Positions 2,796-47,930 of a DNA stretch of 49,169 bases are shown here, one piece after another; the stretch's first letter is position 1, and each line of letters begins with the position of its first letter. The notes beneath the pieces were generated by a model. The model was not told where the DNA came from. It saw only the letters and a list, made by a program, of their open reading frames with translations, and did no database searches. The stretch comes from a virus (taxonomy: Duplodnaviria; Heunggongvirae; Uroviricota; Caudoviricetes). The stretch lies in the IMG/VR virus record IMGVR_UViG_2740892489_000001. One strand, given 5' to 3'. A program made the translations under genes and the position numbers.

Positions 2796-5389
2796 TTGCA
2801 TATTCCTTAGCCCAGCGGGGCAGTGATAATGTCTTAATAGCTGGCCATTCATCGGTATTCAGGCAGTCAGACAGGGTTCGCAGATTGCGGTGATATTCCT
2901 GTTGACCTGCCAGTTTTGCTTCTTCGCCCATCATGAAAATTTCAACCGGATAACGTCCGCATTCAATAGTTGTGCTGGCAACCAGAAAAACGAAAGTTGG
3001 CTGCACTCCAAACTGTGCTTCATAACCGTCACTGTAGAATGCATCCTGAACGTGATAGCGGTAGTCGTAATAAGCGGTTTTGAATCGTTGAATATCCGCC
3101 GTAGTTTTCACGTCCATGATCCAGTGAAATTCAGGGATAATTTTGTCCGGACGGCACCGACACAAAATTCCTGTTTCAGGATCTTCCCAGTAAATTGATG
3201 ATTCAGCGTGTCCGGCGCTTTCAACAAGCCATTGCCCCAGCGGCAAAGCCATAACGCTTTGATACATGAGTTCAATTTTCCGGCCTTCTTCCGCAGTGAT
3301 AACCGTTTTTCCTGTGCTTGCGCATTCCATCAGAAACGCTTTCTCTTCTTCTTTTCCGGCGTTTGTACGGCGGTTAAATTCAGGTGCTACGATAAAGCGG
3401 TTACTGAATTCTTCCGGTTCAAGTACCCGGCAGTGGAAAGCAGTTCCTAAATCGAGCGTTTTTGTCTTTGTGGTGTCCACGGGGGCATTTTTACGCCACA
3501 AATATAGTGCCGGAGTATCAGCAATGTCATCGAGCTGAGACTTACTGATACCGGGACCCGCGTGGTAATTCTCATTCGAAATTCCGTAATAAATACCTGG
3601 CTCTATGTCTTCTACGATTACGGGATCTGCGACTTCGCCAGTTTCATCACTGCAATCGCGATGCGGATCGCTGCCAGCATTCTCATTGTGCGGATGTTCA
3701 GCGCCTTCCATTTCCTCCGGATCATTTTCCTTAGCTTCAACCTGACTCTCTTCATCGAATGTTTCCTGGTATGTTGCGTCGCCCATCACCGCACCACAGT
3801 CAGGGCAGTTATCCCCGCCAGTCTGGCCGCAGGCATTGCAGGCTATTTCCGGTTCCTGTTGCACTACTGGCTCAGGTTGATTCATATCTGGGCTGGTTTT
3901 TTCCGTTTCTGGCTGGTTCTGGTACACACAATCGCGAGTCTGGATCCCCTTTACCCATTTCGGATCGTTCGGGTCGCTAATTCCGTCAACAAATTCACCA
4001 CGTGATGCAGCAAGCAATTTATCGGCATCGACAGGATTTTTTGATGGAATGTTTTTCCGGGCTTCATGGAGTTCTGCCCGCAGTTCCTGATATTTCGCAT
4101 CAACAGAATTTACCTGTGACTGAGCATCCAGCGGCTGCGTGTCCTGATGATGTTCAGTTGCGTCCGGTTCCATTGTTTCAGCCTCTCCCTGTTCAACTGC
4201 CGTTGTTCCAGATGGTTGCGGTTTTTCTTCATCATCCTGTTTTCCTTCTTCTGTTACTCGCTGCGGCATCGGGGCAGAGGAGCGACCGCAGGCAATATCC
4301 ACGATTTCCGGATCAGGGTTGGCATGATCGGTTTCAGTCAGTACTTTGTTCAGATATTCAGTGACGTGCGCGGGGATGACCTCGATCCCAATTGGTGCTT
4401 CTTTTACGGACGCAACCACGATGGCGCGGGAATAATCCAGCCCGCCAGGCATGGTGATGAATTTGTCGCGGAAAACAGAAAAGGGCGGTTTATTTTCAGC
4501 GATAATTTCCTCAATGCGTTTAGCGTGTGCCGGATGAAGGTTATAGATGTCCAGATCCATTGAACGGGCCAGTACGCCAGTGGCTACGTCGCGCGCCAGT
4601 GACGTCAGATCGTGTACGAAACCTTCGCCGCGATCGGTGAGGTTTCCGCCGCCAGCATTAGCACCGGAAGCCGTGCGAGTGATGTGTGAAACACGATTAC
4701 CCTTCATCCACTCTTTTGTCAGCAGTCCTCGATCGGTGTAGTCAGCGTTCAGGTATGCTTCGAAAAAAGCAGTTATCAGTCCCAGGTTTGAATTACCAGG
4801 ATTAGGGAAAACTTTGTCAGTGTCACGAACCAGTTTGTGGAGTTCGCGAATTTCCAGCGGGTCGAGCAGGCTGGTTTTGTGGGAAACAGCCAGGGCAGTA
4901 ACAGCCGGTAGTTCTTCAGCCCGAGCAATGTGTAATGCCTGGAGTCCGTCGCGTGAAACGTGCGTTACCGGTTTTTCGCTGCCGTGTTGAGCAAGCCAAC
5001 GAATGGGCAGTTCCTGGCCAGAAATTGGGAGTAGCATATTCTCCTCAATCTCAGTCATGTCTTCGCCGTTGACGTTGGTATTGCCTTGATAGTGAGCGTT
5101 GTCTGGTGCTGCTCCCGGTTTTAGTTCCCATGTCATGGAGTCTTTGCTGAGTTGATAGCGTTCACTCCAGGTAAAATCGATCTCACCTTCAGCGGGCAGG
5201 TCATTAACGACAGGAAAATTCGTGGCAACAGCTTTAAAATAGCTGCTCAGTTTTTTACCTGACTTAACGATCAGGTAGTCCAGAGTGGCACAGGTCGATT
5301 CAAAATCGTTGCTTGCCCACAGGACGACGTCAGGTTCACCGGATGATTTTTTTCGCTTTCCGTAACAGGAAGAGTGGTTTTGTGCTCAT
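2788..5389 (-). CDS. recE: RecE exonuclease VIII; N-terminus displaced by frameshift at T7 run 5347-5353
   Basis: 782-aa ORF from [11 protein letters not shown] ending [13 protein letters not shown]; upstream 17-codon [14 protein letters not shown] fragment joins in frame if the run is one base shorter. Confidence 0.9.
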
Positions 5390-5490
5390 TGTTTTTTAAC
5401 CTCAACTCAGATTAAAATTCGTTTTGTTCAGTGAATGATCTTGCCGGATACACACTGTTCATAGCCTGCGCCATACGCAGGCTATTTCTT

Positions 5491-11731: not shown

Positions 11732-11891
11732 GCCAAATTAATAATCGGAACTTGGTGAAGTGAAAGAGAAAGCATAACCCAAATCTGAATAATTAAATTC
11801 AGCACTGTGAATAAAATAGAGTCCTTAACCGGAGGAATTCCTGCACTCTCAAATCATCAGGAGGCCGCCCGAAAAGGCGGTGGAGATAATA

Positions 11892-12410
11892 ATGGAAATA
11901 ACTAAAGAACGATTATTGGAAATAGCAAATCTTAGTGATGGGGCATTAAGTGATGGGAGAATTATTTCTCCTGATGCTTATGAATCAGTTACAAGTATAG
12001 AAATAATAACGATGGCTAGGATGCTTCTTGCGCGATTCAAAAAAGAATATAAAAAACAGGTAGATAGCAATGCTAATATATATGATATTTTGGACGGTTG
12101 GGGAGCCTGGGCTGTAGCTGAAAATAGTTCTATTGATTGGCAGGAAATAGCTGATAAATATAAAAATGTTGTTCCTCATGGTAAAAAATCACGTCGTCAG
12201 TGCAGCAATGATGAAGGGGGTATAATTGATACCTGCATGTTGAGGCTTAAACAATATAAGATAGATGACTATGAGTTAATTATCGCTCATTTTGTTATGG
12301 GAGTTTCATTGCGTTGTTTAGCTAAGATAAACGAATGTTCAGATGGTAAAATAAGGAAAAAAATGCAAATGGCAATGGGATTTATTGCAGGTTGTATCTA
12401 TTACCGTTGA
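11892..12410 (+). CDS. Q-antiterminator-like protein (QuuD/Q-933W type) with N-terminal extension; AT-rich
   Basis: DGWGAWA...KSRRQC...IIDTCMLRLK...FVMGVSLRCL...CSDGKIRKKMQ resembles the Q family signature as recalled; GGAG 6 nt before ATG 11892. Confidence 0.55.
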   Translation: MEITKERLLEIANLSDGALSDGRIISPDAYESVTSIEIITMARMLLARFKKEYKKQVDSNANIYDILDGWGAWAVAENSSIDWQEIADKYKNVVPHGKKSRRQCSNDEGGIIDTCMLRLKQYKIDDYELIIAHFVMGVSLRCLAKINECSDGKIRKKMQMAMGFIAGCIYYR

Positions 12411-12416
12411 TTTTTT

Positions 12417-12437
12417 AAGGCGAGTTTCTCTCGCCTT
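12417..12437. other. Perfect 8-bp stem-loop between convergent genes (possible terminator)
   Basis: AAGGCGAG-TTTCT-CTCGCCTT, T6 on the 5' side only; not a canonical hairpin-plus-U-tract in either direction. Confidence 0.4.
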
Positions 12438-12440
12438 AAA

Positions 12441-13924
12441 TTAACTACAGTAACTATTGATTAAGTGAGAACTGAGCCAAGAGGTAATTGCATTCGTAGC
12501 ATGTTCATCAAGCATTGAGAATCCTAATATGATCATTATAAATGAAATCAGCAAAGTCAGAATCACAACGAATGTGGCTATAATCTGATAAGCTTTGTAT
12601 GCTTCTCTTAATGGTGTGACTGCAAGATTCTCATAGTCAGTATCATCAAGAAAACCATATAGTTTATCTCTCCAGACTAGCCTAGTATTATCAAGTATCT
12701 TAAAGTAATTTTTATTTATGAAGAGAGTTGTAACCTGAGATATAAAAATATATATAGATAACGCGAAGAACATATATGGGAATATGTTATTGGTTATATT
12801 AATCTTTGATGCGTCTAGCGCATATTTTATTGCAAATAGACTTATAACCAGAGCCAGATCTTTCCAAAGAGCGGATGTGATGTCTTTAGACTGACTTATT
12901 ATTTTTTGCGTGTCTTCAGCTAAGGTTTTCCTTAGATCGGACAGAGATTTAATAGTCTCTCTGCTGCTAGCGCGAATGTGGGCCTTATATAGTAATTTTG
13001 CTGACTCAAAGGCCATAGGGAGTTTTTTTTGGTAAACCCTCACAGAAGGATACATACTCTGGCCATTCTCGTGCTAACTCACTTGTGAAGAAAGTATGTT
13101 TGAGTTCAATCTCATTGCCCTCAATAAAGATCCAGTTTATTACAGTTTGTAAAACTGAATAGTCGGAAAGCAGAATGTCTGGATCTCCATAAATTAATTT
13201 TTTTGGTGGCTTTCCAGTTAAACAAATTGATTTCTTTTCATCTGCTAATAATTCATTAACGAGAGTGCGACAAAGCATATTGCAGGAAACTTGTAACCAT
13301 TTTTTGAAAAAGTTGTCCTCTGCCTCAGGCATTTTATAAAGTACCCAAGGAGCTATATCAGATGCAGGCATGAACTCACTAGAATAGAATTTAACGTAGC
13401 TCTGTAAATTGATTGAAGTTCGTACGGTTTCATTAGATTCAATTTTTTTCTGGAGCATGGTTCCATGGCTCAACAGAATATCCTAAAGTTTCAAATCCAT
13501 GTTTCAAACCGAGAATATTCACTTTATTGGTTATTGATACTAAATCATCATTGTGTAGAAAAACATTCCACCCTTCGAGCGTAAAAATATACCTGTTATT
13601 TTCGAATGCAATGCATTTTAGCGTAATGTTAAGTTTATCACCTTCACTGCATGACGATGGTTTTACTTCATCATTACAGTCATCTTTAACAGTAATTTCA
13701 ATCCAATTTGGTACGTTTTCGTAAACGTACTGCCAAAGAATGAGTGCATCTTTGTCCATTTTGGCAGAAATTAGAACGCGCGCAGAATCATTTTTTATTG
13801 ATTCTGATGCCAAAAATTCAGGGTCTTTCCTTGACGCCTGTATAGACTCATCGATTTTTTGAAGTATCGATGTCATCAGTAATAATCCTCGCAGTAGTAA
13901 CAATAATTTGTTTTCGCCCATCAT
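12441..13924 (-). CDS. Hypothetical protein with multi-pass membrane C-terminus; three track ORFs joined across homopolymer indels
   Basis: ORFs 13439..13924, 13006..13473 and 12441..13055 become one frame if T7 13443-13449 and T8 13023-13030 are each one base shorter; hydrophobic helices in last ~200 aa. Confidence 0.5.
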
Positions 13925-14907
13925 CTAAGTTTCTTATTTCTGGACGGTCATCTTCATTATAACTAATTACTACACTTTCTGCAGTTTCAATTTTTCGTCT
14001 TGGTGGTTTATGAATGCCATCTGCTTTTATAGTAAAGGATTCGCCTTCAATACCAGCATTTTTTGTTTGAGTTTTGAATGTGTTGAGAATTGGTGATTTT
14101 TCATCTAACGGCCCAAAAATGCTGGTCAATAACGGAGAAGCATCTTCAGGATTATATTCGAAATCAGCTCTGCTTAAAACTTCATATATTTTATTTACGC
14201 CGCTTTTTTGAATTGACTCTGGCAATAATTCTTTATGCCTTTTGAAGGTTATTTTCAGCGCATCAATAAGCTTATTGCAAAGTTCAATTTCAGAGTTGAC
14301 TCTTTTAACATTTAAGAAGCCTTTAAAATATCCTGAAATATTGGTTCTTTTACTCCTGTCTTTTACAATAACTTTCCCGCCTTTCCCACTTGGATCAAGT
14401 TGAATTAACGCTATTTTTTTGCATTGCCTCAGCTTTTTTTACGAAAGTTTCATGAAATCTTTCTAAAGTAGGCATTTGTTCTTCAGATAACTTTTCGTCA
14501 AGAACATAACGAACCACATCTTCATTATCGTATTTTATAATTGCATAGAATTTTTCCTTATCTGAAACCAATTCAAATAAGAAAAAGCATCCCATACTCG
14601 TGTTACCGCTAGAATGGTGTGACTGAAAATCACTGGCCAGTAGCTTCGATTGTTCTGTAAAACAATTAGCTTCAGCATCTGCTTTATCTCTAATGATACG
14701 CAGGATTCTTTCGGTATTTGAATTCTCCAGAAAAGTGAAAAGATTTCCTTTCAGTGAAGATTTGATACGTTCAAGAAAAAAATCCACATGCTGAACTGGT
14801 TTTATTTCTTTGAGAAGTGTCGGTGCTTCAAGATTCTTACCTACAACGTGAAAGATCATTTTATTAATGACTAAATTTTGTACGTCTTGTTCAGAAAGGA
14901 AACTCAT
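13848..14907 (-). CDS. NdpA/YejK-like (nucleoid-associated protein family) candidate; two track ORFs joined
   Basis: ORFs 14395..14907 and 13848..14225 fuse if T7 14414-14420 or 14434-14440 is one base shorter; motifs MIFHVV, GCFFLFELV...YAIIKYD, IQLDPSGKGGKVIVKDRSK recall the YejK family; GGAG before start. Confidence 0.45.
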
Positions 14908-14999: not shown

Positions 15000-15236
15000 A
15001 TCGCGGATAGATCTTTGTAGAGTCAGTGATTGGCGCAGGTAGGTGGTAACAGCAGACAAATAGCTGCGGATACTTGAGGCTATCTGCCTCGGGCATGAAC
15101 ATCAAAGGCAGATAGAGAAAAGCCCCAGTTAACATTACGCATCCGGCAAGACGCTTAACATTAATCTGAGGCCAATTTCATGCTTTGCACATGTAGGTTA
15201 GCCTCTTACGTGCCGAAAGGCAAGGAGAAGCAGGCT
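15000..15236. promoter_or_regulatory. hok leader / putative sok antisense region
   Basis: Structured GC-rich leader typical of hok mRNAs upstream of the hok ATG. Confidence 0.4.
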
Positions 15237-15392
15237 ATGAAGCAGCAAAAGGCGATGTTAGTCGCCCTGATCGTCATCTGTTTAACCGTTATAGTGACGG
15301 TACTGGTAACGAGGAAAGACCTCTGCGAGGTACGAATCCGAACCGACCAGACGGAGGTCGCTGTCTTCACAGCTTACGAACTTGGGGAGTAA
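15237..15392 (+). CDS. hok: Hok/Gef-family type I toxin
   Basis: MKQQKAMLVALIVICLTVIVTVLVTRKDLCEVRIRTDQTEVAVFTAYELGE; in-frame upstream extension from 15180 (mok-like). Confidence 0.85.
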   Translation: MKQQKAMLVALIVICLTVIVTVLVTRKDLCEVRIRTDQTEVAVFTAYELGE

Positions 15393-15855: not shown

Positions 15856-16455
15856 ATGGCGCATATACAACTGGTCAAACAAACCTCTTCCGGATTACTT
15901 CTCCCGGCGACGCCGGAGAGTTGTGATTTTCTGCATCAAATCAAAATAGGCGAGTGGATACACGCAGACTTTAAGCGTGTGCGTAACTACGCATTCCACA
16001 AGCGTTTTTTCAAACTCCTGCAACTGGGATTCGATTACTGGACTCCGGTCGGTGGGGCGATCACGCCTCGCGAACGAAAACTGCTGTCTGGTTTCGTTGA
16101 TTACCTGTGCGAATCAGTTGGTCGGGAACACACGCCAGCCCTGAGTGATGCCGCAGAGCAATATCTGAATACAGTTGCGACACGCAGAACCCGGGATACG
16201 GCATTGTTAAAGTCGTTTGAGGCTTTTCGCGAGTGGGTAACCATTCAGGCTGGATTTTACACCGAACATTTTTATCCGGACGGTAGCCATGGGCGTCGGG
16301 CGAAATCCATCGCTTTTGCGAATATGGACGAAACCGAGTTTCAGCAGGTTTATAAATCTGTTCTGAATGTGCTGTGGAACTGGATTCTGTTCCGTAAATT
16401 TTCCTCTCCGGAACAAGTCGAAAATGTGGCCGCGCAGCTGCTGGAGTTTGCGTAA
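15856..16455 (+). CDS. Nin-region phage protein (DUF1367-like by recollection)
   Basis: 199-aa ORF in the position of ydfU-type genes upstream of the late regulator. Confidence 0.45.
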   Translation: MAHIQLVKQTSSGLLLPATPESCDFLHQIKIGEWIHADFKRVRNYAFHKRFFKLLQLGFDYWTPVGGAITPRERKLLSGFVDYLCESVGREHTPALSDAAEQYLNTVATRRTRDTALLKSFEAFREWVTIQAGFYTEHFYPDGSHGRRAKSIAFANMDETEFQQVYKSVLNVLWNWILFRKFSSPEQVENVAAQLLEFA

Positions 16456-16745
16456 TGGTGGATTTACGTAAAGCGGCGCGGGGGCAGATGTGCACCGTCA
16501 GAATTCCTGGCTACTGCAATCACGATCCGGAAACGTCTGTGCTGGCGCATTACCGACTGGCGGGAACGTGCGGAACAGCGACAAAACCACACAATATGCA
16601 GGCGGCGATTGCCTGTAGCTCATGCCACGATCTAATCGACGGGCGGGTAAAAACCATCGATTACACCAAAGAAGAATTACGCCTGATGCATGCAGAAGGT
16701 GTTCTTCGCACACAAGAAATCTGGAGAAAGGAGGGATATTTATGA
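16455..16745 (+). CDS. YbcO-like Cys-rich protein (DUF1364 by recollection)
   Basis: CTVRIPGYCNHDPETSVLAHYRLAG...CSSCHD pattern, 96 aa. Confidence 0.5.
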   Translation: MVDLRKAARGQMCTVRIPGYCNHDPETSVLAHYRLAGTCGTATKPHNMQAAIACSSCHDLIDGRVKTIDYTKEELRLMHAEGVLRTQEIWRKEGYL

Positions 16746-16924
16746 TTTACCCAACGAATACAGGAAAAAGCGGAGAACACCTTCGTCTCACCACGCTGGA
16801 AAGTGTCTGGATTCAGGGAAAACTACGTATGTGGGGGCGCTGGTCGTATATTGGCGGCGGTAAGACGGGGAATATGTTCAACCAGTTGTTGGCCTCTAAA
16901 AAGCTGACAAAAAACGGCAATTAA
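16742..16924 (+). CDS. Hypothetical 60-aa protein
   Basis: GGAGGG Shine-Dalgarno before ATG 16742; overlaps upstream stop. Confidence 0.4.
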   Translation: MIYPTNTGKSGEHLRLTTLESVWIQGKLRMWGRWSYIGGGKTGNMFNQLLASKKLTKNGN

Positions 16925-16940
16925 CGAGGCGCTCCGGAGG

Positions 16941-17286
16941 ATGAAAAAAAGCAGGTCTGAACAAGTCTGAACTTGAGGCTTTTTTGCGGGATATGATTAA
17001 CGGTAAGCAAAAGAGCTGGCTGGCGCATTGTACTGATGCAGAGGCGTTATGTATTGATCGGGTCATAAGTGAGGTGCTGGCAGAGCATCCAGGATTGATT
17101 AGCGTCCTTCGGCAACGGTATGAGGGGCGGGGGATGACCAAACGCAAAATGGCTGAATTGCTAAATGATGCACACCCAGAGTGGTGTTTTAGCACATGCG
17201 AAAAGCGAATTGCTAATTGGTTGGCCGTTGCTGAGTATGCGCTATACATTCCCATGCGAGAATCATTCGCTCAAAAAACGGCTTGA
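16941..17286 (+). CDS. Hypothetical protein at the Q position upstream of the late region; frame broken at A7 run 16944-16950
   Basis: ATG 16941 with GGAGG Shine-Dalgarno gives 9 codons then stop; one fewer A yields a continuous 115-aa frame MKKAGLNKSELEAFLRDMINGK... Confidence 0.4.
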
Positions 17287-17532
17287 TTTTTTACGCATAA
17301 ACTGCTTCAATTTTGCTACGCTTCGCAAAGCTGTATCGCGAGGCGAATCAAGCGCAATTAAACTTTAATAGAACCCGCCATCGAGCGGGTTTTGTTGTTT
17401 CTGTGGTGTGATATCAGAAACGATATTTAATCATCGCCTTCAAAATAAATTTATTTATATGTTGTTGTATATATTTTAAGTGAAAGTGAATTATTCACAT
17501 AAAATAAAAACATATAAATAAATTTACATAAC

Positions 17533-17576
17533 TTGACGCAAACTGTTGTTGCGATTGGAATATTAAATCGTATCAT
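17533..17576 (+). promoter_or_regulatory. Candidate promoter upstream of tRNA genes
   Basis: TTGACG at 17533 after a very AT-rich upstream stretch (17440-17530); -10 element ambiguous. Confidence 0.3.
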
Positions 17577-17639
17577 CGAAAACGGTTCTGAGGGGGAACT
17601 CTTCTTTGAACGGTGATATCGCTCCCCTGAAGAACCAAT

Positions 17640-17715
<76 letters not shown>

Positions 17716-17718
17716 TAT

Positions 17719-17793
<75 letters not shown>

Positions 17794-18159
17794 GCATTTG
17801 AAACAAGCCTTATTGTATTACGGCACTGGCGTATTTTTTTTATTACGTGGGAGCAGGTTGTTTTGAAAAAGCATTCTGTTCTCTGGCTATGATTTGAGGC
17901 CGGGTGTAGCCTCAGTGCTGATTTTTTACGGCAGCAGAATGGTGCATTATCGGTGGAGATTTTGTATTTCCTGGCAGGGTCGGTGATGCATCATTCTGGT
18001 GTTGTAAATCGCACCACAGAGGCGCTCCTCAGTGCGAGGGTGGTTTAAAGAGTCGGTTTAGCGGGAAACCACAGTATCCATACAGCACGGAATACTTCGG
18101 GAGGCACCCGACGCCTCGGTTTAATAACAATTAAAAAATTCATCCCTTGCATTGACCAA

Positions 18160-18184
18160 CCGCCATATCTGGCGGTTTTTTTTT
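18160..18184 (+). terminator. Rho-independent terminator
   Basis: CCGCCA-TATC-TGGCGG followed by T9. Confidence 0.7.
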
Positions 18185-18574
18185 ATTCCTTTCTCAGGAC
18201 AAAAAAAAGACACGAGCATCCAGGAATACTCGTGGGACAACGTCCTTTAGATAGCAATTTGCGAGAGGGTGAAAAGTAGCGCGGTCGTCGGATTAAGACC
18301 GCGGGACAAAGTCCATGAAGAATAATAAGTATTGGCCCCCTTCTGGGGACATGTTCATACTACTAAGCTTCAGAAGTGGTTTAAATCATCAAATTAACCT
18401 TAATTTTCGATAAGTCTTATTTCATTTCTTTGCGCCACATCTGGCGCGCATCAAATAACGCCACGCAAAGGGCATCTGCGGATGCCGGTGCTTTTGACGG
18501 GGTGTTTTTTACGGGCCGCTGGTGGCCATTTTTTGTTTCCATTACACAGCGCCCGCATCTGCGAGGTGGGGGTT

Positions 18575-18790
18575 ATGAAATCCATGGATAAGTTAACAAC
18601 GGGTGTCGCCTATGGCACCTCCGCAAGCAGTGCTGGCTACTGGTTTTTACAGTTGCTCGATAGAGTAACTCCGTCACAGTGGGCTGCAATCGGTGTGCTG
18701 GGTAGTCTGGTTTTTGGCCTGCTGACGTACCTGACAAACCTTTATTTCAAGATTAAAGAAGATAAGCGCAAGGCTGCGAGAGGTGAATAA
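18575..18790 (+). CDS. Phage-21-type pinholin (S21-like), dual start MKSM
   Basis: [71 protein letters not shown], 71 aa. Confidence 0.85.
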
Positions 18791-19287
18791 TGCCTCCATC
18801 ATTACGAAAAGCCGTTGCTGCTGCTATTGGTGGCGGAGCAATTGCTATAGCATCAGTGTTAATCACTGGCTCAAGTGGTAACGATGGTCTGGAGGGTGTC
18901 AGCTACATACCATACAAAGATATTGTTGGTGTATGGACTGTATGTCACGGGCATACAGGAAAAGACATCATGCTCGGTAAAACGTATACCAAAGCAGAAT
19001 GCAAAGCACTCTTGAATAAAGACCTTGCCACTGTCGCCAGACAAATTAACCCGTACATCAAAGTCGATATACCGGAAACAACGCGCGGCGCTCTTTACTC
19101 ATTCGTTTACAACGTGGGTGCTGGCAATTTCAGAACATCGACGCTTCTTCGCAAAATAAACCAGGGCGATATCAAAGGCGCATGTGATCAGCTACGTCGC
19201 TGGACATATGCTGGCGGTAAGCAATGGAAAGGTCTCATGACTCGTCGTGAGATTGAGCGTGAAATCTGTTTGTGGGGTCAGCAATGA
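18790..19287 (+). CDS. Endolysin (lysozyme) with N-terminal signal-anchor-release segment
   Basis: Hydrophobic Gly/Ala-rich N-terminus then lysozyme-like region; start overlaps holin stop (TAATG). Confidence 0.85.
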
Positions 19288-19748
19288 ACAGAGTAACCGC
19301 GATTATCTCCGCTCTGGTTATCTGCATCATCGTCTGCCTGTCATGGGCTGTTAATCATTACCGTGATAACGCCATTACCTACAAAGCCCAGCGCGACAAA
19401 AATGCCAGAGAACTGAAGCTGGCGAACGCGGCAATTACTGACATGCAGATGCGTCAGCGTGATGTTGCTGCGCTCGATGCAAAATACACGAAGGAGTTAG
19501 CTGATGCGAAAGCTGAAAATGATGCTCTGCGTGATGATGTTGCCGCTGGTCGTCGTCGGTTGCACATCAAAGCAGTCTGTCAGTCAGTGCGTGAAGCCAC
19601 CACCGCCTCCGGCGTGGATAATGCAGCCTCCCCCCGACTGGCAGACACCGCTGAACGGGATTATTTCACCCTCCGGGAACGACTGGTAATGATGCAGGCC
19701 CAACTTGAAGGTGCTCAGCAATACATAACCGAACAGTGTTTAAAGTAA
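19284..19748 (+). CDS. Rz-like inner-membrane spanin subunit
   Basis: N-terminal TM helix then coiled-coil-like sequence; overlaps endolysin stop. Confidence 0.75.
19504..19689 (+). CDS. Rz1-like outer-membrane lipoprotein spanin subunit, embedded in Rz
   Basis: Lipobox LVVVGC, proline-rich [13 protein letters not shown], nested in the +1 frame of Rz. Confidence 0.7.
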
Positions 19749-19885
19749 AATCTTAACTACAATATGATTCATTTTGATGATTGTTTCATAAGGAACAGTG
19801 AAGTAAGATCTAAGATGAGTTAAATTTTATACAGTATAATCATAATATTGCAGCAAGGTGGTTATAATTGAAAGAATATTTAGAT

Positions 19886-21344
19886 ATGAATACATCTCAT
19901 GTAAGAGTTGTTACTCATATGTGTGGGTTCCTGGTTTGGCTCTATAGTCTTTCAATGTTGCCACCAATGGTTGTAGCATTGTTTTATAAAGAAAAAAGCC
20001 TGTTCGTTTTCTTTATAACTTTCGTTATATTTTTTTTGCATTGGTGGCGGAGCGTGGTATACAACTAAGAAATCTGGCATTCAATTACGTACCCGTGATG
20101 GGTTTATTATAATTGTAATGTTTTGGATTTTGTTTTCTGTTATTAGTGCATTCCCTTTATGGATTGACTCAGAACTTAATTTAACGTTCATTGATGCTCT
20201 GTTTGAAGGGGTTTCTGGAATAACAACAACAGGAGCAACTGTAATTGATGATGTTAGTTCATTACCTCGGGCATATTTGTACTATCGGTCACAGTTAAAT
20301 TTTATAGGTGGTTTAGGAGTTATTGTTCTGGCGGTTGCTGTATTGCCATTATTGGGTATTGGTGGTGCAAAGCTTTATCAGTCAGAAATGCCGGGGCCAT
20401 TTAAGGATGACAAACTCACTCCCCGCCTGGCCGATACGTCACGGACACTGTGGATAACTTATTCTTTATTAGGTATTGCTTGTATTGTCTGTTATAGACT
20501 TGCAGGAATGCCTTTGTTTGATGCTATTTGTCACGGGATTTCCACAGTTTCGCTTGGTGGTTTCTCAACTCATAGCGAGAGTATCGGATATTTTAATAAC
20601 TATTTGGTTGAGCTGGTGGCTGGTTCTTTTTCCCTGCTATCGGCTTTCAACTTCACTCTTTGGTATATTGTTATTAGCAGGAAAACGATAAAACCTTTAA
20701 TCAGAGATATTGAACTTCGTTTCTTTCTGTTAATAGCCTTAGGGGTGATCATTGTTACCTCTTTCCAGGTCTGGCATATAGGTATGTATGACTTGCATGG
20801 AAGTTTTATTCATTCGTTTTTTCTTGCCAGCTCCATGCTCACTGATAATGGTTTAGCTACGCAGGATTATGCAAACTGGCCCACGCACACGATAGTGTTT
20901 TTGCTGTTGTCAAGTTTCTTTGGGGGATGTATAGGTTCAACTTGTGGTGGAATTAAGTCACTTCGATTTCTTATACTTTTCAAACAAAGCAAACACGAGA
21001 TAAATCAGCTTTCTCATCCCAGAGCGTTGTTGAGTGTAAATGTAGGAGGGAAGATAGTTACAGATCGTGTAATGAGGTCTGTATGGAGTTTCTTTTTTCT
21101 TTATACTCTCTTCACGGTGTTTTTTATACTGGTGTTAAATGGTATGGGATATGATTTTCTTACATCATTTGCAACAGTGGCTGCATGTATTAATAATATG
21201 GGATTAGGTTTTGGGGCTACTGCATCGTCATTCGGAGTGCTTAATGACATTGCAAAATATTTAATGTGCATAGCTATGATTCTTGGTCGCCTTGAAATTT
21301 ATCCTGTTATTATATTGTTTTCAGGTTTTTTTTGGCGCTCCTAA
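19886..21344 (+). CDS. trkG: Trk potassium uptake membrane protein TrkG; frame broken at T8 run 20030-20037
   Basis: MNTSHVRVVTHMCGFLVWLYSL... N-terminus (ORF 19868..20068) and 408-aa ORF 20118..21344 join if the run is one base shorter. Confidence 0.85.
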
Positions 21345-23386: not shown

Positions 23387-24486
23387 ATGAGCAGACCGGA
23401 CTGGGGGGCGTTGCAGCAGGAGTATATTGCTGAATACACCCGCTCCGGTATATCTCCGGTGGCATGGTGTGAAGCAAGGGGACTGAACTACGCAACAGCC
23501 CGTCGTTACATCAAAAAAAACTCCGAAAAATGCGCAGAAAGAAAATGCGCAAAACTGCGCAAAAAAAGTGCGCGAAAAAAAAACTGCGCAGACTGCGCAA
23601 AGGCAGAACGGAAAATCTCAGAAAAAAAAAGGCTGTATCCGATGCACTCCTGATTGAGGGGGACACGGAAGAAATTTCGTTCTGCCCCGATGAATTCGGT
23701 ATTTCTGACCAGCAGGCAAAATTCGCCATGTTGGTTGCTCAGGGGAAAAAGCCGACAGAGGCATACCGACTGGCTGGTTATGAGGGGCAAGGTGCGACAG
23801 CTAACAGCAACGCCAGCCGTATGCTTAGAAATGCCAGGGTTTATCGTGCTATCAGCTACTTCCGCAATCAGTACCAGAAACGCTATACCGCAGACCTGGA
23901 TTTACTGGTGAGCCAGTTGATGGCCATTGTCCAGGCCGACCCCAATCAGTTGGCACAATTTCGCCGTGTTAACTGCCGTTATTGCTGGGGCGAGAATCAT
24001 CTCTACCAGTGGCGTGATATTGCAGAATTCGATAAGGCTGCGGCACAGGCCTCCAGAGATGGTAAACCCGAGCCGGAATATGGAGGCCTCGGCTTTGTTG
24101 ATAACGCCATACCCAATCCGGATTGCCCGAAGTGCTGCGGTGAGGGAACGGGACAGCTTTATATGGCTGATACCACACTGCTTGATGGGGATGCGCGGCA
24201 ATTATATGCAGGGTCAAAGCTCGGAAAATACGGTGTTGAGATCCTGCTGGAGGATAAGGCTGCCGCCCGGCGTGAATTGTTGCGTTTGCTTTCTGCTGGC
24301 GGGGCATTATGTGCAGATAAACGGCTACAGGAACTGGAAATTGAACGGCGCAGAATAGAAAACCAGAAGCTGCGCAAAGAGATCGAAACGGTGGAGGATA
24401 ATGAACATCCCCAGCCTGTGGCGATCAATATTAATGTGGTTGATGCCAGATTAAGGAGTGATGAAGATGATCTCTCCGACGCTTAA
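23387..24486 (+). CDS. Terminase small subunit; frame ambiguous through A-run repeat region 23513-23630
   Basis: N-terminal ORF 23387..23653 and ORF 23530..24486 (AKFAMLVAQGKKPTEAYRLAGY...ANSNASRMLRNARV) separated only by A8/A7/A9 runs. Confidence 0.6.
23513..23630. repeat. Array of six TGCGC(A/G) hexamers interleaved with A6-A9 tracts
   Basis: TGCGCA at 23531, 23546, 23556, 23585, 23594 and TGCGCG at 23569; A runs at 23513, 23561, 23575, 23622. Confidence 0.5.
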
Positions 24487-47353: not shown

Positions 47354-47930
47354 TGGCATTCAGAATGAGTGAACAACCACGGACCATAAAAATTTATAAT
47401 CTGCTGGCCGGAACTAATGAATTTATTGGTGAAGGTGACGCATATATTCCGCCTCATACAGGTCTGCCAGCAAACAGTACCGATATTGCACCACCAGATA
47501 TTCCTGCTGGCTTTGTGGCTGTTTTCAACAGTGATGAGGCATCGTGGCATCTCGTTGAAGACCATCGGGGTAAAACGGTTTATGACGTAGCGTCAGGGGA
47601 CGAGTTATTTATTTCTGAACTCGGTCCGTTACCGGAAAATGTTACCTGGTTATCGCCGGAAGGGGAGTTTCAGAAGTGGAACGGCACAGCCTGGGTGAAG
47701 GATACGGAAGCAGAAAAAACTGTTCCGGATCCGGGAGGCGGAAGAAACAAAAAAACAACCTGATGCAGGTAGCCAGTGAGCATATTGCGCCGCTTCAGGA
47801 TGCTGCAGATCTGGAAATTGCAACGGAGGAAGAAATCTCGTTGCTGGAAGCATGGAAAAAGTATCGGGTATTGCTGAACCGTGTTGATACGTCAACTTCA
47901 CAGGATATTGAATGGCCAGCACTGCCGTAG
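47353..47930 (+). CDS. Tail fibre assembly protein (Tfa-like); frame broken at A6 47714-47719 and A7 47749-47755
   Basis: [37 protein letters not shown]... then C-terminal [21 protein letters not shown]... in ORF 47676..47930. Confidence 0.8.

Follow-up and report, generated by a model that had tools for sequence, protein, structure and literature searches.

A probable Q-type late-gene antiterminator of the DUF1133 family, interrupted by two homopolymer insertions, in a Rac-type lambdoid prophage

Gene organization upstream of the tRNA and lysis genes

We analysed a stretch of 49,169 nucleotides (the window), the whole of which is a Rac-type prophage at the ttcA site that carries intR, recET, ralR/RalA, kilR, sieB and trkG. 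Between positions 15,856 and 19,748 it contains the genes and features listed below, together with an additional Q-like gene further upstream.

11880-12410, PF06530 Q-like gene (Phage_antitermQ, E 2e-33), 4.3 kb upstream of the DUF1133 gene
15856-16455, + strand, DUF1367 gene, first of the conserved DUF1367 - YbcO - DUF1133 trio
16455-16745, + strand, YbcO/DUF1364 putative nuclease gene, its stop overlapping the Q start (ATGA)
16742-17286, + strand, DUF1133 / Q-like antiterminator gene; repaired translation equal to WP_000640136.1, PF06576 match
16742-16912, + strand, coding segment 1, frame 2, residues M1-K57
16909-16914, + strand, A6 run with one extra A; A5 in the closest genomes and in phage vB_EcoS-683R6
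16914-16949, + strand, coding segment 2, TAINEALRRMKK, frame 0, residues T58-K69 (three-frame translation and homologue alignment)
16944-16950, + strand, A7 run with one extra A; A6 in relatives
16951-17286, + strand, coding segment 3, frame 1, residues A70-A180 and stop TGA at 17284-17286
17640-17715, + strand, tRNA-Thr (TGT), between the regulatory cassette described below and the lysis genes
17719-17793, + strand, tRNA-Gly (TCC), from tRNA prediction
18158-18187, + strand, second strong terminator-like hairpin with a T run, before the lysis genes
18575-18790, + strand, holin of the phage 21 S type, first late gene (PF04971, E 1e-34)
18790-19287, + strand, lysozyme R (PF00959, E 1e-45)
19272-19748, + strand, Rz spanin (PF03245, E 4e-53)

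The order DUF1367 - YbcO - DUF1133 recurs in related loci, and the lysis genes that follow are homologous to those of the window in at least 13 loci. As the DNA is written, segment 1 reads on to a false stop at 16922-16924, giving a 60-codon ORF (16742-16924) whose ATG shares bases with the stop codon of the YbcO-like gene before it, while a second ORF that ends at 17286 comprises 114 aa from the ATG at 16941 once the A7 run loses one A. A sequence-only reading had described these as two unassigned small genes of 60 aa and, after correction of the A7 run, about 115 aa. Both ORFs do exist, and both lie upstream of tRNA-Thr/tRNA-Gly and the holin, lysozyme and Rz genes, as that reading had placed them; they are, however, pieces of one gene. 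Removal of one A from the A6 run as well as one from the A7 run joins them into a single ORF of 180 aa. The intact gene measures 543 bp, compared to 545 bp here with its two +1 frameshifts. Twelve residues, TAINEALRRMKK, are absent from both ORFs because they are encoded in the third frame between them. Segment 3 carries a predicted helix-turn-helix, which aligns with the DNA-binding region of Q21.

Two independent genes at the Q position would be in keeping with the DNA as written, in which both ORFs are open and the second has an ATG of its own. Against this, the two products align collinearly to a single Pfam model (positions 1-58 and 67-175), the intervening 12 residues are found in the third frame, and every close relative has a single 180-aa ORF. 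The second extra A, that of the A6 run, is what separates the two ORFs. Three-frame translation, the Pfam matches and identity of the repaired protein to WP_000640136.1 together refute the notion of separate genes, to which we assign virtually no probability. We consider it highly probable that 16742-17286 is one DUF1133 gene whose product serves a Rac-type lambdoid prophage as its Q-type late-gene antiterminator, and that its frameshifts are homopolymer assembly errors.

Origin of the two single-base insertions

Comparison of window positions 1-34000 with E. coli Ecol_316 revealed about 11 substitutions, 33 one-base insertions and 3 deletions. The one-base indels fell mostly in A/T runs of at least six bases, and the fraction of affected A/T runs rose from 2-3 of 110 five-mers to 12 of 64 six-mers and 9 of 15 seven-mers; within the same 34 kb, no G/C run was affected. 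Indels were likewise present in intergenic runs, and many other genes were broken in the same way, for example trkG at 20030 and minus-strand genes at 13023, 13443 and 14414. We also compared the locus with complete E. coli genomes. The best of the 1,780 that matched did so at 99.8% identity, the match spanning 1,239 bp compared to 1,241 bp in the query, and none scored higher, indicating that both extra bases are absent there; neither insertion was found in any complete RefSeq E. coli genome among these 1,780. Both extra bases are also absent from a phage that is 98% identical. Since the insertions lie mostly in A/T runs and become more frequent as the runs lengthen, both frameshifts are probably artefacts of homopolymer sequencing or assembly.

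An alternative view is that both frameshifts are real mutations, which would make the Q gene a pseudogene and leave the prophage unable to express its late genes. The frameshifts are, after all, there in the DNA as written, and defects are common among Rac-type prophages. Public protein collections moreover hold many DUF1133 fragments, which indicates that the gene is often called in pieces; these include a 112-aa piece starting MKKAG, which resembles the second ORF, and a 56-aa N-terminal piece, each deposited as a separate protein, so that breakage at these runs recurs. Arguing against a pseudogene, the +1 changes in A/T runs depend on run length and extend across the whole window, intergenic DNA included, and they outnumber substitutions by about 3 to 1 in the comparison with a near-identical genome, a pattern characteristic of homopolymer sequencing error. 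In addition, the insertions are not shared by the complete RefSeq genomes, and two independent events within 35 bp, together with damage to many other genes, would imply implausibly fast decay accompanied by almost no substitutions. We therefore regard a genuine pseudogene as unlikely.

We also considered whether production of Q is controlled by a slippage switch at the A runs, working through phase variation or programmed frameshifting. The proximity of the two runs and the abundance of gene fragments in databases are compatible with such a switch. However, two separate +1 shifts would both need correction, the runs comprise just 5 and 6 A residues in intact relatives, unrelated genes and intergenic DNA show the same indel pattern, and no slippery heptamer with downstream structure was seen. 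Given the window-wide pattern and the short runs of relatives, we rejected this explanation, whose likelihood we judge to be negligible. Under the artefact reading that we favor, the two orphan ORFs are an annotation trap that homopolymer errors have set, concealing a common and already named prophage gene.

Family membership and predicted fold

The repaired 180-aa protein is identical at every residue to WP_000640136.1, a "DUF1133 family protein" of E. coli Ecol_316, and 100% identical to a protein annotated "antitermination protein Q" in phage vB_EcoS-683R6 (ON470595). It matches Pfam DUF1133 (PF06576) over positions 1-175 of 176 (E 1e-107; 357.4 bits compared to a cut-off of 23.1), and each fragment matches on its own, the first over positions 1-58 (E 2e-35) and the second over 67-175 (E 2e-59). 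PHROG 753, "anti-termination protein Q-like", matches the repaired protein as well (E 1e-79). In a 64-sequence alignment of the family, all of the invariant columns (W31, G32, W34, C96, D98, E100, T151, R155, E164 and others) are kept in the repaired protein. Pfam PF06530 (Phage_antitermQ) is crossed marginally, at 27.1 bits compared to a cut-off of 26, and is present on nearly all homologues in precomputed Pfam lists. Neither lambda Q (PF03589) nor phage 82 Q (PF06323) gave a match at E up to 1 when both fragments and the repaired protein were scanned against Pfam, and the five proteins searched against NCBIfam gave no match.

When 1.84 billion representative proteins were searched exhaustively with HMMER, only 99 matches were returned, among which about three full-length clusters were distinguished at 50% identity, indicating that the DUF1133 family is narrow. 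The weaker full-length matches were true PF06530 proteins that also exceed the DUF1133 cut-off, which marks DUF1133 as a divergent sister of the Q21/Q933W family. The sequence-only reading had found no Q family to fit these ORFs and had suggested that, should one of them be the late activator, it might belong to an uncharacterised antiterminator family. Neither statement survives the matches of both fragments and the repaired protein to DUF1133, the match to PHROG 753, or the crossing of the PF06530 cut-off; moreover, a 2021 paper (PMC8136144) lists DUF1133 as "Q antiterminator (HHPred)". The family already has a name and annotations, and has been studied in part. It is a widespread Q-like family of Enterobacterales prophages, occurring in Rac-type and Gifsy-type prophages and in some Stx phages, and most databases still call it a "domain of unknown function".

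Homology to a nin-region protein unrelated to regulation, named beforehand as evidence that would speak against a late activator, did not emerge; the profile and structure-based searches instead gave Q-like families, retrieving DUF1133, PHROG 753 and Q21 chains. The match to Q21 in the PDB was significant with profiles and not with a single sequence: the E value was 0.27 for the single sequence, 1.4e-4 for a profile of 22 close homologues, and 5.6e-9 for the Q21 chains 6p18_P and 6jnx_P with a profile of 64 homologues drawn from Escherichia, Salmonella, Citrobacter, Klebsiella, Proteus, Providencia, Morganella and Xenorhabdus, the next match having an E value of 0.5. The alignment of the DUF1133 protein with Q21 is collinear and pairs invariant residues with identical ones of Q21, namely WxxGxLxxWGxW, C96-x-D98 and T151-C152-R. 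A first structure prediction, based on the 22 close homologues, was unusable (pLDDT 55). The AlphaFold model obtained with the 64-sequence alignment reached a pLDDT of 72.8, with values above 88 for residues 100-175 and low to moderate confidence for the N-terminal 95 residues. The top 11 Foldseek matches of this model were all Q21 chains. As modelled, the repaired protein is a Q21-type fold with a sigma-R4-like helical domain.

Phenotypes have been described for a likely member of the family. A four-gene operon of the Salmonella prophage Gifsy-1, with isrK directly downstream, ends in the gene for AntQ (SL2579), a protein described as a Q-like antiterminator (PMC4825925). Its expression is toxic and arrests growth, which co-expressed Rho, SrmB or RNase H can rescue, and over-expressed AntQ acts on transcription of the core genome (PMC4825925). 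Two of our loci, one from Salmonella (L008) and one from E. coli (L006), resemble this arrangement. In both, a match to Rfam isrK (67-76 bits) starts 33 nt past the DUF1133 gene, the -35 element of the isrK promoter overlaps the DUF1133 stop codon just as the candidate -35 element does in the window (see below), and a C4-like RNA and an antirepressor ORF follow isrK; their DUF1133 proteins are 82% (L008) and 88% (L006) identical to the repaired protein. On the strength of gene order and the Rfam isrK match, AntQ appears to be a DUF1133 protein. The searched literature contains no direct antitermination assay at a cognate promoter for any DUF1133 protein, the AntQ data consisting of toxicity and rescue phenotypes.

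The candidate late-promoter cassette and known Q systems

The DNA at the end of the DUF1133 gene contains the following elements, all on the same strand as the gene.

17283-17288, + strand, candidate -35 element TTGATT of a putative late (pR'-like) promoter, overlapping the stop codon
17289-17305, + strand, 17-bp spacer TTTTACGCATAAACTGC, candidate Q-binding element
17306-17311, + strand, candidate -10 element TTCAAT, transcription start predicted at about 17318
17314-17322, + strand, TGcTACGCT, (extended) -10-like element at about +1 with TACGCT at 17317-17322, candidate sigma-dependent pause element
17320-17338, + strand, leader box GCTTCGCAAAGCTGTATCG, conserved across loci
17372-17399, + strand, intrinsic terminator (tR'-like), GC-rich hairpin and T tract, predicted to end a leader RNA of ~80 nt

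The candidate -10 element lacks the usual A at position 2, and a generic promoter scan, which requires A at that position of the hexamer, did not call the late promoter. The ~80-nt leader is predicted to fold at -30.1 kcal/mol (z -3.3). It matched no Rfam family at gathering score; isrK (13 bits, E 6) and STnc370 (28 bits, E 0.33) were not significant. The window itself carries no isrK. We make no claim for the predicted 5' hairpin of the leader, because on inspection its pairing was not apparently conserved in other loci. Nor did we adopt an identification of the leader as IsrJ, as the homologous Salmonella segment (L008, 5350-5700) gave no Rfam match; isrJ has been placed after anrP (PMC4825925).

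Our comparison of the DNA 3' of the gene covered 33 loci, taken from different species, as well as two distant phages. A composite motif (hexamer, 17 bp, TTnAAT-like hexamer, 5 bp, TAnGCT) occurred at or just past the end of the gene in 27 loci, in all of which TAnGCT lies 5 nt past the -10 element. Although the first hexamer was unconstrained in the search pattern, it started with TTG in all 27 of the pattern-matching loci. With TTG added, the pattern occurred exactly once in 30 of the 33 related loci and once in the 49-kb window (17283-17322), compared to an expectation of 0. An equivalent terminator lies 60-130 nt past the motif in nearly all loci. In many loci the pause-element candidate reads TGnTAnGCT with n variable, which is characteristic of an extended -10-like contact. 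The leader box GCTTCGCAAAGCTGTATCG is almost unchanged where the proteins are just 52-63% identical, its conservation far exceeding that of its flanks.

The two distant phages, from Providencia and Edwardsiella, encode proteins that are 42% and 31% identical to the repaired protein, respectively. Their near-consensus promoters (TTGACT or TTGACA, 16 bp, TATAGT or TAGTAT) are followed 7 nt on by TAyGCT, a position which implies that TAnGCT lies in the initially transcribed region. The Providencia phage has a similar spacer, TTTTACCGATAAAG, and both phages keep the GCGAAGCTG portion of the leader box. Alternatively, TGcTACGCT could be an extended -10 promoter in its own right instead of a pause element. 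The cassette persists beyond inserted modules, isrK-orf45-anrP in L008 and hok/sok in another locus (L011), and the L008 copy is clearly homologous to window positions 17283-17345. That gene and cassette are inherited together is the strongest evidence in our analysis that the DUF1133 protein acts at the cassette. At sequence level, the locus appears to carry a Q-dependent regulatory cassette, with promoter, promoter-proximal -10-like pause element and terminator ahead of the late genes. The sequence-only reading had raised the possibility that the late activator is encoded here, and this part of it gains support from the Q21-type fold, the Q annotation in phage records, the apparent kinship with AntQ, and the candidate promoter, -10-like element and terminator directly downstream, ahead of the lysis genes. 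Taken together, these findings make it most likely that the DUF1133 gene is the late-gene antiterminator.

The presence of a second Q-like gene in the window nevertheless had to be weighed. Should the PF06530 gene at 11880-12410 be the true late antiterminator, the DUF1133 protein would do something else, for instance exert an AntQ-like, general effect on host transcription. In favor of this, the PF06530 gene has a strong Phage_antitermQ match, its product is 60% identical to Q proteins of Stx1a phages over residues 66-176, and over-expressed AntQ does affect transcription of the core genome. On the other hand, the gene sits in an island of 33-36% GC and is followed within 10 bp by a hairpin and by minus-strand genes that converge on it, and it lacks a cassette of promoter, pause element, terminator and late genes; it has no counterpart in the 11 kb of phage vB_EcoS-683R6 around the identical DUF1133 gene; and in 30 of 33 loci it is the DUF1133 gene that the conserved cassette accompanies. 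We consider the PF06530 gene an accessory paralogue rather than the late regulator, and its being the true late antiterminator very improbable.

Building on the gene's identity and family, its fold similarity to Q21 and the conservation of the cassette, all of which we observed, we propose a model in which the DUF1133 protein acts as Q; the start site, pause, binding site and antitermination activity in this model are inferred from homology and conserved anatomy. A constitutive sigma-70 promoter overlapping the end of the gene (TTGATT, 17 bp, TTCAAT) would start transcription near 17318. RNA polymerase would pause almost at once, as sigma re-binds the -10-like TGcTACGCT at about +1. In the absence of Q, polymerase would go on to stop at the intrinsic terminator at 17372-17399 and free an RNA of ~80 nt. 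When Q is present, its C-terminal helix-turn-helix would bind promoter-proximal DNA and the protein would load onto the paused polymerase. Q would then travel with polymerase, as Q21 does, suppressing hairpin-dependent termination, so that transcription could pass the tRNA genes and additional terminators and reach the holin, lysozyme, Rz and structural genes. The Q-modified polymerase would also need to read through the hairpin at 18158-18187. The conserved cassette (-35, 17 bp, TTnAAT, 5 bp, TAnGCT, leader box and terminator) offers concrete biochemical targets as well as a means to locate the late promoter in DUF1133 prophages.

The proposed cassette shares its layout with the lambda Q region pR'-6S RNA-tR': directly behind the gene comes a constitutive promoter, then a -10-like pause element (about +1) and finally a terminator, which limits the transcript to a short RNA; in lambda, the -10-like pause element is found at +1. 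The lambda Q protein (PF03589) itself shows no sequence similarity to the DUF1133 protein, whose fold is Q21-like and not lambda-Q-like. The layout of Q cassettes used for this comparison is that described in bioRxiv 10.1101/651190.

Relative to Q21 (PF06530; PDB 6P18, 6P19 and 6JNX), the DUF1133 protein is about 15-21% identical and has about 30 extra residues between positions 40 and 93. It has no equivalent of the 13-residue minor-groove loop in the HT[loop]H motif of Q21, the alignment gap falling exactly there, and the modelled protein has instead a 5-residue turn between helices 133-143 and 149-179. Since the loop is missing, recognition of DNA must differ from that of Q21. Positions 17255-17345 contain no direct repeat of at least 7 nt and no 8-bp direct-repeat pair like the binding element that Q21 has near its promoter, in a search that would miss imperfect subsites. 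DUF1133 proteins might form a mechanistically distinct branch of the Q21 superfamily, with a plain helix-turn-helix, an extra helical insert of ~30 residues and a lambda-like promoter geometry that places the pause element at +1, and the box GCTTCGCAAAGCTGTATCG could be a new DNA or RNA loading/utilisation element of a kind present in none of the three studied Q systems; we offer this as a tentative and rather doubtful possibility.

The isrK-bearing loci that resemble the Gifsy-1 antQ region share with the gene in the window the DUF1367-YbcO-Q operon context. In contrast to Gifsy-type loci, in which isrK-orf45-anrP lies between gene and cassette, the cassette of the window directly follows the gene. 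Among the closest parallels are Rac-type and related phages. The DUF1133 "q" genes of Rac-SA53 (KU052037) and Rac (MN652886, "q: prophage antiterminator") encode proteins that are 74-75% identical to the repaired protein, and in both, as in vB_EcoS-683R6, the gene likewise follows DUF1367 and YbcO and precedes tRNA and lysis genes. Compared to the DUF1133 Q genes of Rac-type and related phages, the two extra A residues are the sole difference that we noted in the gene described here.

Prophage type and frameshifts at A/T runs

Three features bear on the type and the ends of the prophage.

1-1237: integrase gene, which adjoins ttcA in the reference genome
1558-1968: RalA antitoxin RNA, opposite the ralR toxin gene (Rfam, 225 bits)
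47696-47896: hit to the Rfam family IS009 (210 bits), close to the tail-fibre end of the prophage

The position of the RalA RNA opposite ralR confirms the window as a Rac-type prophage. Past about 42.2 kb, the window is also divergent from Ecol_316, the near-identical E. coli reference genome.

Compared with the Ecol_316 prophage, window positions 1-34000 are systematically enriched in +1 insertions at A/T homopolymers, and these become more frequent as the runs lengthen. Examples fall at 775, 5347, 13023, 13443, 14414, 16909, 16944, 17834, 18176, 20030, 23513-23622 and 33084. Many genes are broken by such insertions, including those of the recE region, the minus-strand genes of the low-GC island, trkG and the terminase region. 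For trkG, the potassium transporter gene carried by Rac, it is an extra T at 20030 that splits the gene.

19868-21344: trkG, 3' of the lysis genes

ORF-based readings of the window are unreliable near A or T runs of at least 6.

A second Q-like gene in a low-GC island

An island of 33-36 % GC holds a second Q-like gene, followed by a hairpin (12419-12438) and then by convergent genes.

11880-12410 (+): second Q-like gene, a true member of PF06530 (E 2e-33)
12441-14907 (-): two genes of the island; the Ecol_316 annotation gives a hypothetical protein for one (1,434 bp) and a nucleoid-associated protein for the other (1,059 bp)

Residues 66-176 of the Q-like product share 60 % identity with the Q proteins of Stx1a phages, while its 65-residue N-terminal extension gave no phage match. 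A promoter-pause-terminator cassette was sought 3' of this gene and none was found. In place of the two minus-strand genes the window presents five ORFs, as a result of T-run insertions.

Conserved and variable elements around DUF1133 genes

The leader box of the cassette that follows the DUF1133 (Q) gene, GCTTCGCAAAGCTGTATCG (17320-17338), is near-invariant even between loci with no more than 52-63 % identity in their Q proteins, and two distant relatives, the Providencia and Edwardsiella phages, retain part of it, GCGAAGCTG. On the other side of the gene, a YbcO-type nuclease gene is the usual immediate upstream neighbour of DUF1133 genes. For this reason, three proteins from the HMMER search (P0307, P0318 and P0250) are noteworthy: they are fusions of 211-379 aa that combine a DUF1133/Q-like domain with either an HNH_3 nuclease domain or a segment of DUF968.

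Two tRNA genes separate the cassette from the lysis genes.

Within 17400-17800: tRNA-Thr(TGT) and tRNA-Gly(TCC)

The DNA upstream of the pair is very rich in A and T at 17420-17535 and has the hexamer TTGACG at 17533-17538, and four other DUF1133 loci (L004, L005, L024 and L034) likewise carry tRNA genes at this place. Further along, Rfam STnc100 matches window positions 17991-18188 below threshold (22 bits, E 0.03), and the match ends at a strong terminator (18158-18187). Four loci, L003, L010, L015 and L021, have full STnc100 matches (68-87 bits) at the equivalent site 3' of their Q gene.

Inserted modules in related loci

In Gifsy-type loci, a module of isrK, a C4-like RNA and the antirepressor gene anrP separates the DUF1133 gene from the conserved promoter/TAnGCT cassette (seen in the region 4588-5429 of the Salmonella locus L008 and 4575-4776 of the E. 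coli locus L006). Beyond the inserted module, L008 has the cassette again (5390-5429), with homology to window positions 17283-17345. Since the sRNA gene isrJ is positioned after anrP in Gifsy-1 (PMC4825925), the terminated leader made from this cassette might be IsrJ; this is only a lead, because Rfam families gave no match to the L008 cassette segment.

A different module, the hok/sok type I toxin-antitoxin system, differs in position between loci.

15068-15392 (+): hok/sok (sok by Rfam, 99 bits; Hok/Gef by Pfam, E 3e-21)

In the window, it lies immediately upstream of the DUF1367-YbcO-Q operon, whereas in the Pantoea locus L011 hok/sok (4699-5000) sits between the Q gene and the cassette.
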